A stretch of DNA of 64,000 nucleotides from Dehalococcoidia bacterium (lineage in GTDB: Bacteria; Chloroflexota; Dehalococcoidia; Lucifugimonadales; UBA3495): NCBI GenBank assembly GCA_965247605.1, contig CBDFHM010000011.1:327930-391929 (forward strand). Direction: 5' to 3'. The stretch's first letter is position 1. Each line of letters opens with the position of its first letter. A program made the position numbers and the translations under genes. Positions 1,357 to 55,174 of this stretch are shown one piece after another. The notes under the pieces were generated by a model. The model did not search any database and was not told where the DNA came from. It worked only from the letters and a program-made list of their open reading frames with translations.

Positions 1357-1637
1357 TCTAAGATCGGGGGGGTGGTCCGAGGCTGGTGTGTTGCTTCCCG
1401 TGGCGCCGGGCCTCCCGAAAATTGCAAAAGGGTTTTTAGAAAGGGTAAACAAGGGCGTACAACCAGTCTGTCACAGCCCCTGCTTACGGGCAAACCACCT
1501 GCCCTGAGGCTGCGTCGCATGATAGGATATTCAAGAGATAATGGTCTGGCTGCTGGCAGTGTTAGCAGAAATCCGTACCGGTAAGGTCTGTTAGGGCCTA
1601 TGAAAACGCCTCGGCGAGGCAAAGCGGGAGCGCAGAT

Positions 1638-2399
1638 ATGAACGTCCACGTTTATACCCAGCCTGGTTGATTCAGTTGCCGGACGGTGGAAGAGTTCCTC
1701 TCGTCCCACGGTGTTCAGTATGAACACCACAATTTGCTAACCGACACCCAAGCTGTTGAGGACCTGCGGAGCCGGGGAATCAAGTCCCTGCCGGTCACCA
1801 TCGTAGACGACACCGAGGTCATCATTGGCTACTACCCCAAGAAGTTGATCCCGGCGTTGAAGCTGGACGTGACCGTGGACTTGTCCGGCAAGACATCGTG
1901 GTTGGCGGAAAAATACGAAGTCGTCATGAGTGCGGCCATCCGCTCCACTCTCCAGTTCTCCCAAGAGCAATTGGATGCCGTCGTGTCGTGGCGGCCCTGG
2001 AGCCTGCGGGACACAATGGTTCACATCTTGTCGTTCCCTGAAGTCGCGTATTTGAGCCACAAGGTCGGCAGCATGAGCTGGGACGACATGGCCGCATCCG
2101 ACGAACGCCTCAAAGCTATCACAACCGGCCCGGCCATCGCCGAGTATGGAGACCAAGTCCGTCAGGACATCATCGAGTTTCTGGGCAGCGGCAACTCCGA
2201 CGCTTTCGACCGCGAGGTCCCCGCCCACTACGGCGGCGAAGTCACGGTGCTCGAACTATTGAACATCATCCTCAGCCACAGCACCCATCACCTGAAGCAG
2301 GTCTACTACTACATGCAGACCGACCTGGGAATGACGCTGGACCGGCCTGCGACCGATGCAGATTTGGAGGGCATCAACACGCCCGACGCGTTGATCTAG
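1638..2399 (+). CDS. Glutaredoxin-like / DinB-fold fusion protein, candidate selenoprotein (in-frame UGA 1668-1670 in a U-x-x-C motif)
   Basis: The track ORF (GTG 1686) lacks the Grx beta1 strand and redox motif. The same frame upstream reads ATG(1638)...MNVHVYTQPG-TGA-FSCRTVEEFLSSHGVQYEHHNL. GGGAG lies 7 nt upstream of the ATG. Hairpins lie at 1681-1706 and 1711-1727, downstream of the UGA. The C-terminal half (...LELLNIILSHSTHHLKQVYYYM) resembles the DinB/YfiT fold. Confidence 0.6.
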
Positions 2400-2419: not shown

Positions 2420-2456
2420 AAAAAAACGGCCGCCGTATTTCGGCGGCCGTTTTTCT
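2420..2456. terminator. Bidirectional intrinsic terminator between convergent genes
   Basis: Perfect 10-bp stem ACGGCCGCCG / CGGCGGCCGT (2426-2435 / 2441-2450) with loop TATTT, an A-run upstream and a T-run downstream. Confidence 0.75.
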
Positions 2457-2471
2457 CTTTCGAAACCGGAG

Positions 2472-2500: not shown

Positions 2501-3430
2501 CTAAAAGATGGCCAACGGGTTCACCGGCGATCCGGTAGCGTTCTTGAACCGCAGGGGCGCCACGTTGAACATGAACTCCCAGCGGTTGAGTCGCTCACAG
2601 ACCTGCACCAGCTCCTCGCAGTTGCCAGCGTCGATCAGCCACAATCCCATGCCGACGATGCCTACCTTGTGTATCGGCAGCCCGACCATCGGATAGCCGC
2701 TGGGTTCGGCATCCACCGAGGCGTCTCCTCCCAGGATCGAAACACCCCGCTCTTTGAGCCACGGCAGCGTTTCCGCGTGGAGACCGGGGCGGCCCGACTC
2801 CGGCGGTCCCAGTTCCAAGCGTCGCTTGTACCAGCCAAACCGGACCATCAGGGCGTCGCCTTCCTCCACCCGCACTCCTTGGGCCTTCTCGGCGGCCTCC
2901 AAGTCTTCGATGAACACGCCCTCTCCGGCCTCGAGCCAGGGCTTTCCCTTGACCTTGGCGATGTCCAACATGACGCCGCGGGTGACCACGCCGTTCTGGG
3001 CCTTGTCGATGTCCAGGCTATTAGCCTTGGTCTCCGAGTTGACGTCCGAGGCCGGCCTGCCGTTGTACATCTTGCCGTTCCAAATCTGGTGGCATAATGC
3101 GTCTAAGTGAGTGATGGTCAGACCGTGAAACGAAAAACCGATGAAGTCGGCGGTGCCGCCCGGGCCCTCGTCGGGGCAGGTGTCGCCGGCGCGAACCATG
3201 TAGTGGAGCGGGGGAATGGAGGTGACGTCCGGCGCAATCTCAGGCACGATCAGCCTGGAACAGGTAACGCTGATACCCTCTTTGACCAGGCTTGCCGCCT
3301 GAGCCCTCTTGGCGTCGGTGATCAGGTTTAGGGTGCCCAACTGGTCGTCGGCGCCCCAGCGGCCCCAATTGCTCAGAGATTCGATCCAACCGATGACTTC
3401 GGCCTCTGTTGGTACCTGCCTCGTAACCAT
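2501..3430 (-). CDS. Cyclase family protein (kynurenine-formamidase-like fold)
   Basis: 309-aa ORF. The N-terminus ...SNWGRWGADDQLGTLNLIT and overall pattern are typical of the putative cyclase family. Confidence 0.75.
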   Translation of the reverse strand: MVTRQVPTEAEVIGWIESLSNWGRWGADDQLGTLNLITDAKRAQAASLVKEGISVTCSRLIVPEIAPDVTSIPPLHYMVRAGDTCPDEGPGGTADFIGFSFHGLTITHLDALCHQIWNGKMYNGRPASDVNSETKANSLDIDKAQNGVVTRGVMLDIAKVKGKPWLEAGEGVFIEDLEAAEKAQGVRVEEGDALMVRFGWYKRRLELGPPESGRPGLHAETLPWLKERGVSILGGDASVDAEPSGYPMVGLPIHKVGIVGMGLWLIDAGNCEELVQVCERLNRWEFMFNVAPLRFKNATGSPVNPLAIF

Positions 3431-3553
3431 GGTCCCCTCCTCTATTTGATTCGTGTATTTGGACCCGCCGTCATTCCGGCCCTTCCGCGGATGGGTAAAC
3501 CAGGGCTATTGGTTTCAGCGTGGCCGGAAAATCCCCCCAACCTCCCATTGCGG

Positions 3554-3691
3554 CCTTGCCTCAAAAGTAGACAAAACCATGTCACCCTGAGCACATCGAA
3601 GGGTCTCGTTGGTAAGTTCAGCCTCACTCGAAGTGGCCCGAACCCAGATTCTTCGTCGCTTCACTCCTCAGAATGACAGGTTTGAGGCAAG
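3554..3691. repeat. Nested palindromic repeat cluster (copy A of the two-armed palindromic element, enclosed by an 11-bp outer inverted repeat)
   Basis: Inner arms are CATGTCACCCTGAGCACATCGAAGGGTCTC (3578-3607) and CAGATTCTTCGTCGCTTCACTCCTCAGAATGACAGG (3645-3680). Outer arms are CTTGCCTCAAA (3555-3565) and TTTGAGGCAAG (3681-3691). Related arm sequences occur at 20888, 27061 and 57355. Confidence 0.6.
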
Positions 3692-3785
3692 ACCCCCCTT
3701 GCGAAAGTGGGGCTAGACGCATTGGGTTGGTGGTGCCGTTTGAAACTACGCCGACACAATAGCGCTTCGGTCGATGGCTGGCAAC

Positions 3786-22898: not shown

Positions 22899-23153
22899 TT
22901 AGGCTGGTTGTCCTATACGCTCGTTGATAGCCTTCATCATGTCCTGCAGGTCAGGGAAGAGGTGCGCTTCGGGTGTATGGCGGTGTTCGGCCACAAGCTT
23001 GCCGTCAATAATCACGTCAAACTTTCCATGAGGACCGGGAGTGAGCTTGAAGTTGTCTATATGCTCGCCGGCCCGGGTCAATGCTTCTCCTGCCATCCAG
23101 GCAGCCCGCGGGGCGTGCCCTCAATCCTGGCAGTAGAGTATCTCCAAAGTCAT
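22899..23153 (-). CDS. SelW/Rdx-family selenoprotein (C-x-x-U; in-frame UGA at 23123-23121)
   Basis: The track ORF starts at Met 23096. The same frame upstream reads ATG(23153) MTLEILYCQD-TGA-GHAPRAAWMAGEALTRAGEHIDNFKLTPGPHGKFDVIIDGKLVAEHRH..FPDLQDMMKAINERI. This is the Rdx-fold pattern (YCxxU...AAW...PG.GG.F.V..dG.l). GC-rich hairpins lie directly 3' of the UGA, for example CUGCC-UGGAU-GGCAG at 23104-23090. Confidence 0.8.
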
Positions 23154-24699: not shown

Positions 24700-26728
24700 T
24701 TAGTCCTCCAGGCTTTCCGCCAGAATTTCCAGTACATCCCGGGACTGCTTCTCCCCTTCCATCCCCTTGGACTGAATGCCCTCGGTGAGCATTTGCAAGC
24801 AGAAGGGGCAGGAAACCCCCACCGTGTCCGCCTGGGTCTCCAGGAAATGGCCGGTGCGAACGTGATTGATCCGCTCGCCTTGGCTTTCCTCGATCCACAT
24901 ATGGCCACCGCCGGCGCCACAGCAGAATCCGCGCTCCCGGCACCTGTTTCCCATCTCGACCAGCTCCAGCCCCGGAATTGCTCTGGCGATGTCTCGGGGT
25001 TGGTCGTAGATGCCGTTGTGGCGGCCCAAGAAGCAGGAATCATGATAAGCCATCGTGGTATTGACCATCTTGATAGGCTTCACCCGCCCTTGTTTGATCA
25101 GCTCATCGATGAACTGGCTGTAGTGGAGCACCTCGTAATTCCCGCCAAATTGGGGGTACTCGTTGCGCATTGTGTTGAAGCAGTGGGGGCAAATGGTGAC
25201 GATCTTTTTAACGTTGTACCGGTCCAGTGTTTCTATGTTCTGCTGGGCCAGGACTTGGTAAAGATACTCGTTGCCCATTCGCCGGGCCGGGTCGCCTGTG
25301 CACGTCTCCTCATCTCCCAGGATGGCGAAGTCGACTCCGGCTGACTTCAAGACCTTGACCATAGACCTGGCCACTCCCTGGCTACGCTGCTCCAACGCCC
25401 CGGTGCAACCCACCCAAAAGAGGATTTCCGCGTCGGGCTTTTCCGCCAGCGTGGGGACCTCCAACCCTTCGGCCCAATCGGTGCGGGAATACTGGGTGCC
25501 TCGCCAGGGATGGCCCCGTTGTTCTAGGCTCAGCAAGGCGTTCATACCCGTTTCCGGTATCTTGGACTCCTCCAACACTAGAAAACGGCGCATGTCCATG
25601 ATGGTGGGGACGTGCTCCACCACCACGGGACACTCCTCCATGCAGGCCCCACATGACACGCAGTCCCAGATGGCCTGCTCGGCAATTGCATTACCCAGGA
25701 TGGGCGCCGGCTCCACGTGCTCCGGGTTTCGCGCCCCCTGGTGACCGATGGCCACCATGTGATCTTTCAGGTTCTCCACAATGTGCATCGGCGACAGGAC
25801 TTTCCCGGTAAGGTTGGCCGGGCAGACATCGGAGCAGCGGCCGCACACGGCGCAGGCGTAGCCGTCCAAAAGCTGTTTCCACGTGAAGTCCTGCACCCGG
25901 GCCGGCGCCGAATTTTTCGGTGTTTTCCAGGTCTATGGGGGCCAAAGCGCCGCGGGGCTCCAGTGATCGAAAGAAGGCGTTCATGGGCGAGGCAACCATG
26001 TGCATGTGCTTGGAGAAGGGGATGTAGATGGCGAATCCCAGGATTATCCCCAAGTGCGTCCACCAGAATATGCCCTGCAGTGTGTTGGCCGCGCCCGTGC
26101 CTATACCCAGGTCCGTAAACCAGTCGCCCAGGGCGCCGCCTATGAGAACTTCGGATTCGGGCCCATGGCCCCCCTGGGCCACATAGAAGGAGTGGGTGAG
26201 TATAGTTGACAGCATGAGCCCGGCGATCAAGCCAACCACGATCACCGAGTCCAGGTTACGGGTCAGGTCAAAGCTCAGCCGGCGTGGCCTGACCACCCAT
26301 CGCCGCACCAATGCCCAGGCCAGCATCAGCAATAACACAGCCGCCGCAATTTCGAGGTAGCTGCTGTAGACGCGGACTCCGGTGCCGGTCAGAAGCTTCT
26401 CCGGGAAGGCCCGCCAGATGGAGCCGCCGAAGATGAAGATAACGTAGCTGAGGAGAAGGAGAGGAACCCCCAGAATATTATGCGTGGCCCAATCCCGCCC
26501 AGTCCCCGGACCGCACCCTCTGAAGCACCCGGCTCTGGCCCAAGACAATGACCAAGGCCCCATTGAGCCGCACAAGCGGGCGGTCAAACTGGCCACCTCT
26601 TTGCCCTGTCGAATCAGGCGCAGTACCCGGTTGTAGAACACATAGCCGGACACCGCGCTGACCAGAACCAGTGCCAGGTACACGCCCACCCAGATGGGCA
26701 GTGATCCTATGTCTCCCGGAGGAACCAT
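24700..26728 (-). pseudogene. Membrane-anchored Fe-S oxidoreductase (HdrD/DsrK-like: 2x[4Fe-4S] plus 2 CCG domains fused to a multi-TM domain), interrupted by at least 4 frameshifts
   Basis: The C-terminal frame (24700-25896) has CAVCGRCSDVCPA, CVSCGACMEECP and two CCG-type Cys motifs. The membrane part (to 26728) switches frame around 25896-25901 (...ENTEKFGAG | RVQDFTWKQLLD). It also switches frame three times within 26455-26600, where the sensible reading QFDRPLVRLNGALVIVLGQSRVLQRVRSGDWAGLGHA / IIFWGF / LLLLSYVIFIFGG lies in three different frames. Confidence 0.75.
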
Positions 26729-38271: not shown

Positions 38272-41214
38272 ATGGCCACCACCAAGGATAGAATTCGCAA
38301 AGGAGAGCGGGAGGAGCTGGCCCAGGAGCTGAAGCGCCGAGTATCCGGAGAAGTCCGTTTTGATCCCTTCTCCCGGGTCCTCTACAGCACCGACGCCAGC
38401 ATCTACCAGATGGAGCCGGTGGGCGTGGTCATCCCCCGCTCGGTGGAGGACGTGCTGGCGGTGGTGGAGGTGGCTAGGGATAGCGGGGTGCCGGTGCTGC
38501 CCCGGGCCGGCGGCACCAGCCTGGCGGGCCAGACGGTCAACCACGCCATCGTCATCGACTTCAGCAAGAACCTGAATCAGGTCCTCGAGATCAACCCAGG
38601 AGAGCAATGGGCTCGCGTTCAGCCGGGCATCGTTTTGGACCAGCTAAACCGGGAGCTGGCGGCTCACAATCTCCAATACGCTCCCGACCCCACCACTGCC
38701 AACCGGGCCTGTGTTGGGGGCGGTATCGGAAATAATAGCTGTGGCGCTCATTCGGTCATTTACGGCAAGACCCTGGACCATGTGCAAGAGCTGCAGGTTG
38801 TGCTGGCCGACGCCAACCAGGCCCATTTCCGTCCACTAACCAACCAAGAGCTGGAGGCCAAGCTAAGCGGCACCGGCTTGGAATCGGACATTTACCGAGG
38901 TGTGCGCGGCATCGCCAGAGACAACTTCGCCGAAATCCAGGCCCGCTACCCCAAGATCATGCGCCGGGTCAGCGGTTACAACCTGGATGAGTTTCTTACC
39001 GACGATTCCTTTAACCTGTCACGGATGATTGTGGGCTCCGAAGGCACCCTGTCTGTGATGACCGAGGCCAAGGTCAACCTGGTCACCCGGCCCACTATGA
39101 CAGGATTGTCCGTGCTTCACTTTGTCGACATCGTGCGGGCCGCCGAGGCCACCCGCGAGGTGCTGAAGCACGATCCTTCTTCGGTGGAGGTGATGGACAA
39201 GATTCTGCTGGACCGGTCCCGGGAGTCCCTGGGCCACTCGCAAAGTCTCTCCTTCATCGAGGGTGATCCCGGGGCTTTGCTGGCGGTGGAGTTCTACGGC
39301 GAGTCGGAAGCCGAGCTAGAGGCCAAGATGAACGCCCTCAAGGAGGACATGGCCCATCGGCGGCTGAGCTACGCCTGCGTCAATCTGATGGACCGGGGCG
39401 CCCAGGCCACCGTCTGGAACGTGCGGAAGGCCGGCCTTGGCCTGCTAATGAGCATCCACGGCGACGCCAAGCCCTTGCCCTTCGTGGAGGACACGGCGGT
39501 AGATCCCGAGAATCTGGGGGAGTTCGTCCGCCGGTTCGATGAGATCGTGCGAAGCCACAACACCCAAGCGGCTTATTACGGCCACGCCAGCGTGGGCTGC
39601 CTCCACATCCGGCCCCTGGTCAGCCTCAAAGACCCCCAGGGCATCGCCACCATGGTTTCCATCGGAGACGAGATCAGCGACCTGGTGCGGGAGTTTGGCG
39701 GGTCCATGAGCGGCGAGCACGGCGACGGCATCGTTCGCGGCGTCTGGACAGAAAAGATGTTTGGACCGCAGATATACGAGCTCTTTCGGGACCTAAAGCG
39801 GACCTTCGACCCTCAGGGCATCATGAACCCCGGCAAGATAATCGACTGTCCTCCCATGACCGAGAACCTGCGCTACGGTCCCGATTATCAGACCAAGTCA
39901 ATCTCCACGAGTTTGGACTTTTCCCTGGACAACGGTTACGCCGGCGCCGTGGAGATGTGCAATGGCATGGGCGCCTGCCGCAAGCTCGACGGCACCATGT
40001 GCCCATCCTACATGGCCACCCGGGATGAGGAGCACTCCACCCGGGGCCGGGCCAATCTGCTGCGGGCCGCGCTGTCGGGCTTGCTGCCCGAAGGAGCCAT
40101 GACCAGCAAGCGGCTCCATGACGCTCTGGACCTGTGCCTGGAGTGTAAAGGCTGCAAGGCGGAGTGCGACTCGGGCGTGGATATGGCCAAGCTAAAGTCC
40201 GAGTTTCTGGCCCAGTACCACCAGGCGAATGGCCTGGCCTTTCGTGATCGGGCTATCGCTCACATCAACCGCATCAACCGCCTGGGCAGCGCCTTTGCTC
40301 CGATCTCTAACTGGGCGGCTCGGAGTCCCGTGGGCAAGCTGTTCTCCCGTGTTTTTCTTGGCGTGGACCAGCGACGGTCCTTGCCCCCCTTCGCCCGGAA
40401 GACTTTTGCAAAGTGGTTTGAGGAGCGTCAGGGCCAGAACCCTCCTTCATCACCCATTACGAACGGAGGACTACAGGGAGGTAAACCCGTAGTCCTGTTT
40501 AATGACACGTTCATGGACTACAACTATCCCCAGGTTGGCAAGGCCGCCGTGGAGCTGTTGGAGGCCGCCGGTTTTCGGGTCACTCTGGCCAACGCCCGGT
40601 GCTGTGGACGCCCCATGATATCCAAGGGACTGTTGGATGAGGCCGCAGACCATGCTCGCTACAACGTGGACCTGCTCCACGCCTATGCCAGCCAGGGAAT
40701 CCCCATTGTCGGCTGCGAGCCGAGTTGTCTGCTCACCTTCCGAGACGAGTACCCGGAGCTTCTGAAGGACGAAAAGTCCCGGACGGTGGCCGCCCACACT
40801 TACATGATCGACGAGTTCCTGGTGATGCTGCAGGATAACGGCGATCTAGAGCTTGAGTTTAGCGACGTGGCCAGAAAGGTCCTGTTCCACGGCCACTGCC
40901 ACCAGAAGTCCCTGGTGGGCACGGCCAGCTCCTTGCGGGCGCTGCGCTTGCCGCCGGGCTACCAGGTTGAGCTGGTCAACTCTGGATGCTGCGGCATGGC
41001 CGGGTCCTTCGGCTTCGAGCGGAAACACTACGACATTTCCATGGACATAGGCGAGCAGGCGCTGTTCCCGGCGGTGCGGGCCAAAGAGCCGGACTGGGAT
41101 ATCGCGGTGATGGGCGTTTCTTGCCGCCAGCAGATAGAGCACGGCACCGGCCGCCAGGCCAGGCACCTGGTCGAGGTGCTTCGGGACGCGCTGGCTGCTC
41201 CGGTCAATGCCTAG
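38272..41214 (+). CDS. FAD-linked oxidase fused to Fe-S/CCG domains (YdiJ / GlcD-GlcF fusion-like 2-hydroxyacid dehydrogenase)
   Basis: The N-terminal FAD_binding_4 pattern (PRAGGTSLAGQ) is followed by a 4Fe-4S dicluster (CNGMGACRK...C, CLECKGCKAEC) and two CCG-type domains. 980 aa, similar in length to E. coli YdiJ. Confidence 0.8.
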   Translation: MATTKDRIRKGEREELAQELKRRVSGEVRFDPFSRVLYSTDASIYQMEPVGVVIPRSVEDVLAVVEVARDSGVPVLPRAGGTSLAGQTVNHAIVIDFSKNLNQVLEINPGEQWARVQPGIVLDQLNRELAAHNLQYAPDPTTANRACVGGGIGNNSCGAHSVIYGKTLDHVQELQVVLADANQAHFRPLTNQELEAKLSGTGLESDIYRGVRGIARDNFAEIQARYPKIMRRVSGYNLDEFLTDDSFNLSRMIVGSEGTLSVMTEAKVNLVTRPTMTGLSVLHFVDIVRAAEATREVLKHDPSSVEVMDKILLDRSRESLGHSQSLSFIEGDPGALLAVEFYGESEAELEAKMNALKEDMAHRRLSYACVNLMDRGAQATVWNVRKAGLGLLMSIHGDAKPLPFVEDTAVDPENLGEFVRRFDEIVRSHNTQAAYYGHASVGCLHIRPLVSLKDPQGIATMVSIGDEISDLVREFGGSMSGEHGDGIVRGVWTEKMFGPQIYELFRDLKRTFDPQGIMNPGKIIDCPPMTENLRYGPDYQTKSISTSLDFSLDNGYAGAVEMCNGMGACRKLDGTMCPSYMATRDEEHSTRGRANLLRAALSGLLPEGAMTSKRLHDALDLCLECKGCKAECDSGVDMAKLKSEFLAQYHQANGLAFRDRAIAHINRINRLGSAFAPISNWAARSPVGKLFSRVFLGVDQRRSLPPFARKTFAKWFEERQGQNPPSSPITNGGLQGGKPVVLFNDTFMDYNYPQVGKAAVELLEAAGFRVTLANARCCGRPMISKGLLDEAADHARYNVDLLHAYASQGIPIVGCEPSCLLTFRDEYPELLKDEKSRTVAAHTYMIDEFLVMLQDNGDLELEFSDVARKVLFHGHCHQKSLVGTASSLRALRLPPGYQVELVNSGCCGMAGSFGFERKHYDISMDIGEQALFPAVRAKEPDWDIAVMGVSCRQQIEHGTGRQARHLVEVLRDALAAPVNA

Positions 41215-53545: not shown

Positions 53546-55174
53546 CTAGGATTCTTGGGCCAGGGATGCCTTCACTTGAGTGGCCACGTCCGCCGGAACC
53601 CACTGGGTCCAGACGTCCTCGTTAGTCCTCAGGTAGTAGATGGCCGCCTCGTTCCATCCCTTGTCGTTGTCGGCCTTCCAGGCAGCCAGTTCTGCCAGGG
53701 GTAGAGCGCCGACGAACATCTTCCCTAGAAACTCGACCACCTCGGGGGCACGATCCGTAAATGCGGAGGAAACCCCGGTATGAATGTCCGCTACCGGAAA
53801 AGCGCACCCGATGGTGGACTCGTAGGGTTCCGACTCAATCGCCGCTACAATGGCGGCCTGGCACTCAGGGGTCCATTCGGGCTCTTCCAACAAGGTCATG
53901 TCCAGCTCTGCGATTATCTTGGTGGGCTCCCAATAGTAGGAGACCACGGGCTCTCCGGCGGCGTACGCCCCTATAATGTTGGCATCTATGGCCTCGGCGG
54001 AGCCGGGCTCCAACAGGTTGAAAGTATCATACAGGCCGTAGGCGAATCACTTGGCCCGGATTATCTTCTGACACCTCCAGCCGATGATGCAGTTGGTGAC
54101 GACTCCCTTGGATGGGTCCTTCGGGTCCTGGAACAGCTCTATGAAGTTGGGCAGGTCCAGCACCGACTCCAAACCGGGGTTCTGCTCGATCACGTAGGTG
54201 GGCACGTAGATACCTTGCGTGGAAGTCGCCAGTATTTGCCCCACAGCGCCGTATTCAACGTTGTCTCCGGTTCCCGCCAGGTCCACCAGATTGCCGGAGG
54301 CCACGTTTTCTTCATACCAGTCCTGTTGGTTTTGTCGCCACATCTCCATGTTCACGTCCAGGTCGCCCGCGGGCAGAGCTACTTTCATGGTGCCTGTGGT
54401 CCCGGTGATCTGCTCCACCGGGTAGCCATAGCCGTGCTGGGTGATGTACATGGCGATGGCGTTGTGCTCCTGGATGGTCTCCCACTGGGGGTCGTGGAAT
54501 CTGACAACCTCTTTGGCTGTAGGAGCTGTCGGCGCAGACGTGAGAGTTGGAACTGGCGCAACCGCCGGTAGGGGTGTCGAGCTAGCTACTGCTTCCCGTT
54601 CCGCCGTCACCGGCACAGCTTTGGTTGCCTCTACTTCCACCGCAGCCGGCGTTGGCCCCAGGGTGGGCGTAGGAGTCGGAGCCGGAGTCTCGGCCGGAGT
54701 CTCGGTAGGAGCAACCACTGCAACCGTGCTGCCATCGCCCTCACCGCCGCCGTCACCTCCGGCGACCAAGACCAGTCCCACCACTGCTGCTATAACGACT
54801 GCCACCAGCCCGATGGCTACGGGAACGACGGGAAACCGGCGCCCTCCCTCTGGCACGGGAAGGCCGAGCACCTGCCGGTGGGCGACGGTCCCTTCTTTCT
54901 CGATGAAAAACTGCTCTTGTCCTTGGGCGCCGGTGAACTGGCCCTGGGGGCGGAAGGACAGGGTGACCATGTAGTGGTCTTCCGTCTCATTGTCCTCGAC
55001 GACCTCGAAGGCCATCGGGACGTTCCTGAAACGGCGTCCGTACGCGCCGGGGTCCTCCCTGGCGGTTCGCATGGCCAAGACCCGGGCCTGGTCCAACGAG
55101 ATATAGCCCAGCGCCTCTCCCGCCGAGTCGAACTCGAACTTCTGCTCCTCTTTTTCGCCCTGATCTTCGGCCAT
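53546..55174 (-). pseudogene. Glycine-betaine/choline-type (ProX/OpuAC-like) substrate-binding protein with cytoplasmic N-domain and TM anchor; in-frame TGA at 54049-54047
   Basis: The two track ORFs (54047-55174 and 53546-54013) are in the same frame and are separated only by TGA: ...NCIIGWRCQKIIRAK-TGA-FAYGLYDTFNLLEPGSAEAIDANIIGAYAAGEPVVSYYWEP... The segment aligns by eye with E. coli ProX [21 protein letters not shown]...FYYTWTPYW. Confidence 0.7.

Follow-up and report, generated by a model that had tools for sequence, protein, structure and literature searches.

Selenocysteine (Sec)-containing glutaredoxins are an established family (PMC13188914), and counts of 'Grx-like UxxC' selenoproteins from ocean metagenomes date from 2008 (PMC2398784). 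The Sec-containing Grx1 (PF00462) of the anaerobic Firmicute Clostridium oremlandii stands alone as a domain of ~85 residues. Members of the DinB/YfiT superfamily such as YfiT/BstA (1rxq), the mycothiol S-transferase of Mycobacterium tuberculosis (8f5v), YjoA (3dka) and DR0053 (6iz2) are single-domain proteins and users of free bacillithiol or mycothiol, with no fused redox domain or Sec. A fusion of the two modules is found in its cysteine form in Burkholderiales and other bacteria (Ramlibacter, Xylophilus and Burkholderia sp. PAMC 26561 are examples), where proteins of ~255 amino acids (aa) are entered in databases as 'glutaredoxin domain-containing protein', 'DinB family protein' or 'NrdH-redoxin'. 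Here we describe a gene at positions 1638-2399 (plus strand) of a 64-kb stretch of DNA from a Dehalococcoidia bacterium (contig CBDFHM010000011.1; hereafter the window, 64,000 nucleotides in full) that very likely encodes one selenoprotein, with the UGA at 1668 decoded as Sec. Taken jointly, its identity as a selenoprotein and its glutaredoxin-DinB (Grx-DinB) architecture are a likely conclusion from sequence comparison.

The predicted protein shares with C. oremlandii Grx1 the thioredoxin/Grx fold and a Sec placed first in a UxxC motif after beta1; it differs in that the module forms the N-terminal third of a 253-residue fusion, carries the motif UFSC and belongs to an aerobic marine member of the Chloroflexota. 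With the DinB/YfiT proteins listed above it has in common the four-helix bundle (target-normalised template modelling (TM) scores of 0.6-0.8) and the H...HxxxH pattern, at 11-19% identity. The Burkholderiales Cys Grx-DinB_2 proteins have the same architecture and a CxxC aligned to UxxC, together with the cis-Pro, the His triad and an invariant R102, Q106, R119, Y198 and Q221, whereas they differ in overall sequence (19-26% identity in alignment A2), in their WQPGCSSC motif, in their neighbourhoods and in the DinB motif, which is WHxAQHTRQ in the Cys forms and SHSTHHLKQ in the Sec form. NrdH-redoxins are marked by the signatures CVQC and WSGFRP. The NrdH-redoxin and YruB families (TIGR02194, TIGR02196) resemble the N-terminal module in size, in CxxC position and in a G-[FY]-x-P segment after beta4; the module scores under their curated cutoffs, however, and the two NrdH signatures are not present as such in Grx-DinB. 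Canonical glutathione S-transferases (GSTs) likewise pack an N-terminal, thiol-presenting thioredoxin fold on an all-helical substrate domain and give weak Foldseek scores, but with a TM of ~0.3, a root-mean-square deviation of 12-17 Å and a helical domain that here has DinB topology, the resemblance is at most an analogy, not homology.

Direct reading of the plus strand gives one frame that runs from ATG 1638-1640 through MNVHVYTQPG, TGA (1668-1670) and FSCRTVEEFL to a TAG at 2397-2399, a total of 253 codons. An earlier note on this DNA, made from the letters of the stretch, had reported this ATG and TGA, a GGGAG 7 nucleotides (nt) upstream, and hairpins at 1681-1706 and 1711-1727, all of which are borne out by the letters themselves. 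The features of the start and the recoded site are as follows.

1626-1630, plus strand: Shine-Dalgarno-like GGGAG, 7 nt before ATG 1638 (direct reading)
1638-2399, plus strand: complete coding sequence of a probable Sec-containing Grx-DinB fusion, 253 residues (translation; period-3 conservation from ATG 1638)
1668-1670, plus strand: in-frame UGA, very likely selenocysteine (U11), first residue of the U-F-S-C redox motif at 1668-1679 (TGA in orthologues; aligned to the Cys of the Cys forms)

U11 and C14 would be the sole Sec and Cys residues of the 253-residue protein. The mechanical open reading frame (ORF) list began the gene at GTG 1686, yielding 237 aa, and public databases shorten the protein to 'DinB family protein' because the UGA is read as a stop.

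Conservation among orthologues provides the principal evidence for readthrough of this codon. One genome per species was scanned, and 80 loci gave a tblastn alignment over residues 1-253. The codon at the site is TGA in all 80 orthologous loci that reach it, each from another species, at protein identities of 63-81% and with the preceding peptide conserved as V[HQ]VYTxPG, a regularity that chance could not produce. TGA is also carried by L082, L083 and L085; among distant, shortened relatives, two at 27% and 39% identity read VFYRVG-TGA-FTC and LYYRPG-TGA-FSC, and neither TGC nor TGT occurs at the site in any orthologue examined. TGA is fixed in every examined member of the close SAR202-type clade. 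Coding-type conservation begins at the ATG ten codons before TGA and continues through it in one frame: across codons -9 to -1 the first and second positions are near-invariant and the third carries 1.0-1.8 bits of per-codon entropy, a measure that gives no period-3 signal upstream of the ATG. An in-frame start and a purine-rich box (GGAG or GGGGA) precede TGA in every orthologue (n = 82), the start being ATG at codon -10 in 71, ATG at -15 in eight, ATG at -12 in one and TTG at -10 in two.

These patterns bear directly on the reading in which UGA 1668 is a true stop, ending a ten-codon upstream peptide (perhaps a regulatory leader) that is followed by a separate, Grx-less DinB protein starting at GTG 1686 or at a later ATG. 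The gene calls agree with such an arrangement, as all public ones are shortened, to 237, 233, 221 or 214 aa, and GTG 1686 could act as a start in this genome. This downstream start is not conserved, however, its equivalent being a non-start codon (CTG, TTA, GTA, CTT or CTA) in 52 of the 82 orthologues, and the protein from 1686 is a thioredoxin fold deprived of beta1 and its active site, just as the earlier note had held. The ten upstream codons, moreover, have residue-by-residue counterparts in both the glutaredoxins and the Cys forms, matching their beta1 strand and active-site loop, and the single frame of conservation runs through the TGA. We consider a true stop extremely improbable. A search with the extended protein returned 996 homologues; among the best 120 of these all but two are annotated in N-terminally shortened form (237, 233, 228, 221, 214 or 211 aa), and the named entries are 'DinB family protein' from metagenome-assembled genomes of Chloroflexota, Dehalococcoidia or SAR202. 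Homologues beginning at the equivalent of residue 17 had been named beforehand as a sign against the extended gene; they are indeed annotated from near residue 17 or later, yet their DNA keeps beta1, the TGA, the start codon and the Shine-Dalgarno box.

Two proteins that appeared to depart from this pattern were rejected as exceptions. Both are full-length database entries that had been candidate Cys forms: in P0090 (L085) the Trp is a TGA translated with another code; in P0059 (L084) the Arg is encoded by CGA on a contig of 2x coverage whose neighbouring genes are fragmented.

Is the gene perhaps a pseudogene, or does TGA stand in for TGC or TGT through an error in sequencing or assembly? A single window is insufficient to exclude an error, and one relative (L084) does have CGA at the site. 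However, every one of the 80 independent assemblies extending over the site, many of them complete long-read chromosomes, shows TGA, the CGA lies on the thinly covered contig with broken neighbouring genes described above, and the remainder of the gene is under purifying selection. The probability of this explanation is close to negligible.

One Sec form was observed outside the Chloroflexota, in Candidatus Entotheonella sp. DD2, a sponge-associated bacterium (L066; CAZZSM010000001.1, gene at 3001-3762), where a 65%-identical copy also carries the TGA. This suggests horizontal transfer of the selenoprotein gene.

Cys-containing homologues were sought exhaustively among 50%-identity representatives and then in a follow-up search. 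Full-length relatives at 22-28% identity carry WQPGCSSC, and the first Cys of CSSC aligns to the TGA. This alignment, which the earlier note had proposed, upholds its placement of the TGA at the first Cys of a Grx motif. The Cys-form family comprises at least 1,599 proteins with both Pfam Glutaredoxin and DinB_2, and those of its cultured members that the search output names belong to the Burkholderiales (Ramlibacter, Xylophilus, Burkholderia and Herminiimonas), the proteins bearing generic names only. When 60 Sec and Cys forms are aligned together, P52 (the cis-Pro), H129, H214, H218, R102, Q106, R119, Y198, G200 and Q221 are invariant. As judged by alignment, Sec and Cys forms constitute the classical Sec/Cys pair by which selenoproteins are recognized.

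The ability of the organism and its lineage to decode Sec can be assessed in several ways. Within the window lies a second candidate, on the opposite strand.

22899-23153, minus strand: independent SelW/Rdx-family CxxU selenoprotein gene, TGA at 23121-23123 (Pfam Rdx, 4e-13; TIGR02174, 36.7 bits against a cutoff of 34.2)

This gene reads MTLEILYCQD-TGA-GHAP, and a CUGCC-UGGAU-GGCAG hairpin stands ~20 nt past its UGA; standard gene callers would miss or shorten it. It had been noted earlier as a second case of UGA at a Cys codon, which proves to be real and SelW-like, with the refinement that its motif is CxxU, the TGA standing at the second Cys rather than at the first. It is in-genome evidence for Sec decoding. 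At the level of the lineage, the BSepDB paper (PMC13326102) analysed only species with the Sec pathway, and two entries named Dehalococcoidia bacterium, UBA1141 with 49 genes and 10f4566d-ab44-49ae-b774-fc9f760c6436 with 46, are among the ten that it ranks as richest in selenoproteins. These are the organisms of L059 and L055, respectively, and both carry the Grx-DinB TGA gene; Sec decoding in the lineage is thus independently documented. TGA also terminates ordinary genes here, being the stop codon of nine of the 44 long ORFs in the window (TAG ends 24 and TAA 11), including that of ATP synthase gamma, whose Pfam match reaches the profile end, and the code has therefore not been reassigned. 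TGA is thus the rarest stop and TAG the commonest, which may be unusual for a genome of 59% GC. The rarity of TGA as a stop may be tied to the frequency with which this lineage uses UGA to encode Sec.

The same body of evidence weighs on the proposal that UGA 1668 is recoded to an amino acid other than Sec, either to Cys through a Cys-tRNA with a UCA anticodon and a SelB-like factor, or to Trp or Gly through a lineage-wide code change. UGA-to-Cys recoding systems have been proposed in uncultured bacteria, the inserted amino acid is not distinguishable by sequence comparison alone, and one gene caller put W at the site (P0090). Mukai et al. 2017 (PMC5424206) did not address UGA-to-Cys recoding in Dehalococcoidia. 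Set against this proposal are the use of TGA as an ordinary stop in the window, the location of the site at the nucleophilic position of a CxxC-type redox motif, a classic place for Sec, the canonical SelW-like CxxU gene nearby, the cataloguing of orthologue-bearing genomes with the Sec pathway and 46-49 selenoproteins, and a hairpin resembling a selenocysteine insertion sequence (SECIS) at the expected distance from the UGA. Recoding to an amino acid other than Sec is, in our judgement, very improbable.

The hairpin in question is one of two that follow the UGA.

1681-1706, plus strand: candidate bacterial SECIS, hairpin 1, GGACG-GU-GGAA-GAG-UUCC-UCU-CGUCC, beginning 10 nt after the UGA (conserved pairing)
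1710-1728, plus strand: hairpin 2, accessory or incidental, 7 bp with loop AGUAU; GUGUUC-AGUAU-GAACAC core at 1711-1727

Hairpin 1 consists of a 5-bp lower stem, an internal loop, a 4-bp upper stem and an apical loop, GAG, 21 nt from the UGA; in a bacterial SECIS the apical loop lies about 16-37 nt from the UGA and contains a G. Both hairpins are present in the minimum-free-energy fold of 1668-1733, and the 66-nt segment containing them gives z = -2.08 against shuffles. Pairing was counted on 71 distinct 66-nt segments beginning at the TGA, and the cells of hairpin 1 were paired in 94.1% and 96.1% of cases, as opposed to 34-54% for controls in which the partner column was slid. Pair 18-35, the innermost of the lower stem, occurs as G-C 38 times, as U-A 23 times and as U-G three times, a synonymous change of ACG to ACU being matched by a second-position change in a downstream codon, and in L028 GGAG/CUCC replaces GGAA/UUCC with a Phe-to-Leu replacement. 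Synonymous sites are near-frozen from codon -2 to codon +4, and all 80 distinct sequences have GGU as the codon before the UGA. The earlier note had placed both hairpins where a SECIS is expected. For hairpin 1, which is conserved and shows one compensatory change, the comparison favours this, and it is a probable SECIS; hairpin 2, with 91.5% of its cells paired, is broken in the L004-like clade, and it is not the main SECIS because its loop, ~46 nt from the UGA, is too far away and because it is less well kept. A scan of the whole window with Rfam at the gathering threshold gave zero matches, and therefore no catalogued RNA family covers the hairpins.

The two domains of the protein, and the residues that may bind a metal, are located as follows.

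1644-1853, plus strand: glutaredoxin/NrdH-like thioredoxin-fold domain, residues 3-72, with U11-x-x-C14 and the cis-Pro P52 (Pfam PF00462, Foldseek)
1893-2321, plus strand: DinB_2/YfiT-like four-helix bundle, residues ~86-228 (Pfam PF12867, AlphaFold2, Foldseek)
2022-2024, 2277-2279 and 2289-2291, plus strand: putative metal-binding triad H129, H214 and H218 (invariant across 60 Sec and Cys forms)

When the TGA is translated as Cys, Pfam recognizes Glutaredoxin (PF00462) at residues 3-59, with 37.2 bits against a cutoff of 22.9, and DinB_2 (PF12867) at residues 107-222, with 37.9 bits against 24.8. The best NCBIfam matches are to the NrdH-redoxin model TIGR02194 and the YruB-type model TIGR02196, at 52-56 bits against cutoffs of 85.75 and 88.55 (TIGR02194 itself at 52.0 bits), so the protein is not their equivalog; release 20 has no dedicated model, its Uxx-star, NrdH and YruB models all scoring below their cutoffs. 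AlphaFold2, run on the joint alignment, predicts a two-domain model with a predicted local distance difference test score (pLDDT) of 88 and a predicted TM score (pTM) of 0.84, in which the N-terminal domain has the layout beta-alpha-beta-alpha-beta-beta-alpha and U11-F-S-C14 comes just before a helix at residues 12-23. A Foldseek search with the N-terminal 73 residues retrieved cGrx1, the Cys variant of C. oremlandii Grx1 (7c10/7c12), at 38-40% identity and a TM of 0.89-0.95, as well as BC3987 and NrdH. For the DinB domain, a single-sequence search against sequences of the PDB gave marginal matches only, and therefore fold comparison was needed; Foldseek matched the C-terminal domain to YjoA, YfiT, DR0053 and the M. 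tuberculosis mycothiol S-transferase with probability 1.00, and the HxxxH motif aligns to that of a solved DinB-fold protein, 3gor (DHEIHH). No solved structure in the Foldseek search spans both domains.

The orthologues have a recurrent neighbour. A GMC-family flavin adenine dinucleotide oxidoreductase (MKYDxIxIGAGSAGS) is encoded directly downstream on the same strand in 45 of the 80 loci (L004-L070), separated from the orthologue by 19-130 nt in about 31 genomes, and the two genes may form an operon in these relatives. In this genome, the Grx-DinB gene is followed by a terminator and is monocistronic.

2426-2457, plus strand: intrinsic-terminator-like GC hairpin with a T-run, 27 nt past the stop (terminator scan and direct reading)

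Several observations must be weighed against the interpretation of 1638-2399 as a Sec-decoded Grx-DinB enzyme. Neither selA, selB, selD nor tRNA-Sec was found within the 64-kb window with ARAGORN and with Pfam on 40 window ORFs; ARAGORN detected no tRNA of any kind in it, and its gene content is housekeeping (H+-PPase, the ATP synthase operon, Rex, UvrA, DnaE) together with oxidoreductases. Taken by itself, hairpin 1 does not exceed shuffled sequences in stability (z = -0.52), and RNAalifold yields a weak consensus (-2.6 kcal/mol) that recovers only four of the five outer-stem pairs and differs in the inner stem; pair counts were preferred to it. The compensatory switch could stem from as few as one or two evolutionary events, in a region that is also under protein-coding constraint. 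As for genomic context, this window lacks the GMC neighbour, the terminator being followed by a convergent cyclase gene instead, and the neighbours of the Cys forms are different again, namely an NMT1/ABC transporter operon or a LysR gene with TctC. Sequence comparison nevertheless gives firm ground for a recoded UGA, for the arrangement of the domains and for the conservation of residues of catalytic type.

A detailed consideration of these features enabled us to propose a model for how the protein is made and might act. Translation would begin at ATG 1638, aided by the GGGAG Shine-Dalgarno sequence, and Sec would be inserted at UGA 1668, most likely directed by the stem-loop at 1681-1706 recruiting SelB with Sec-tRNA(Sec). 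The product would comprise an NrdH/glutaredoxin-like thioredoxin fold (U11-F-S-C14) and a DinB/YfiT-type bundle with an intact three-His metal site. It is conceivable that the DinB metal site binds and activates a substrate or the adduct of a low-molecular-weight thiol, upon which the tethered selenol/thiol pair would act in cis, either attacking it as a nucleophile or reducing a mixed disulfide. In this model, the reaction would end with a U11-C14 selenenylsulfide, to be re-reduced by a thioredoxin-reductase-type system; proteins of the NrdH and YruB types are usually reduced by thioredoxin reductase. This specific chemistry, metal-assisted and carried out in cis by UxxC, is drawn by analogy with the bacillithiol transferase YfiT/BstA, mycothiol S-transferase and Sec-glutaredoxin, and we put it forward as a tentative possibility. 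The frequent downstream GMC oxidoreductase hints that the oxidation of organic matter supplies the substrate, as an oxidised or electrophilic product. In the same speculative vein, the protein might be the first DinB-superfamily member to depend on selenium: a self-contained, GST-like enzyme whose DinB metal centre receives the selenolate of U11 in place of a free low-molecular-weight thiol, possibly linked to the detoxification or reduction of products that GMC and flavin oxidoreductases generate from recalcitrant organic matter.

A genuine selenoprotein could also have two domains that work independently, the Grx serving as a merely tethered, general Sec-disulfide reductase while the DinB domain uses a free low-molecular-weight thiol. 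Each domain matches free-standing families, no solved structure spans the two, and neighbourhoods vary between lineages, all of which would suit such an arrangement. However, the fusion has been kept down to 22-28% identity between the Chloroflexota Sec forms and the Burkholderiales Cys forms, each domain contains residues that do not vary, the pTM of the model suggests a defined inter-domain arrangement, and the protein has no Cys or Sec beyond U11 and C14. We regard independent domains as rather unlikely.

DinB-superfamily proteins are numerous and mostly of unknown function, and a conserved natural fusion to a redox module with U11 and C14 as its sole chalcogen residues is a strong hint of thiol or selenol chemistry at the metal site in this branch. 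The main value of the present gene is as a functional clue for this superfamily, provided by a very likely selenoprotein that is widely conserved and systematically mis-annotated, and the Chloroflexota Sec and Burkholderiales Cys forms offer a tractable Sec/Cys pair. The absence of a Cys variant from 80 species in which Sec is evidently fixed adds to the evidence for selenium dependence of these Chloroflexota, which, going by record titles, are mostly marine or sponge-associated. For annotation, about a thousand database entries are shortened to 'DinB family protein' with the active site missing, and a dedicated model would correct entries across the SAR202-type Chloroflexota, to which two of the ten most selenoprotein-rich bacteria catalogued belong.

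The earlier note had described a combination of Sec-redox module and DinB domain that it did not recognize from the literature. The architecture is not new, since databases already contain many Cys forms with generic names. For the Sec form the suggestion stands, as literature searches (selenoprotein with DinB, glutaredoxin-DinB fusion, SAR202 with selenocysteine) returned no description of it, and a DinB-domain selenoprotein has no entry, under several alternative names, in two review tables of selenoprotein families (2022 and 2026). The homology method of BSepDB could have filed the N-terminal module as 'Grx'.

The surroundings of more distant members were also recorded. In Burkholderia sp. 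PAMC 26561 (L087; CP014306.1) the Cys form is the last gene of an operon encoding an NMT1-type binding protein and an ABC transporter, which, judged from the NMT1 binding protein, may be of the NitT/TauT type. A distant Sec form (L082; JACPQA010000214.1) likewise adjoins an NMT1 gene. Such NMT1 neighbours may indicate a link to organosulfur or sulfonate uptake.

On the upstream side, positions 1-1600 of the window contain only low-complexity, Gly/Arg-rich ORFs on the plus strand, and on the minus strand a Pro/Thr-rich protein that apparently runs off the window start and clusters with a 758-aa ORF in relatives. The gene for the Pro/Thr-rich protein is divergent from the Grx-DinB gene, with an intergenic region of ~300 nt.

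Elsewhere in the window, two genes encode CCG/4Fe-4S (GlpC/HdrD-like) oxidoreductases, at 24700-25896 (minus strand) and 38272-41214 (plus strand); a selenoprotein review table contains an 'Fe-S oxidoreductase-like' family. An OpuAC-like gene, for a substrate-binding protein of the glycine-betaine type, lies at 53546-55174 on the minus strand and is split into two same-frame ORFs by a TGA at 54047-54049 (KIIRAK-TGA-FAYGLY), its two halves matching the two halves of Pfam PF04069. It is possibly a third selenoprotein, one with no obvious Cys partner, or a pseudogene.

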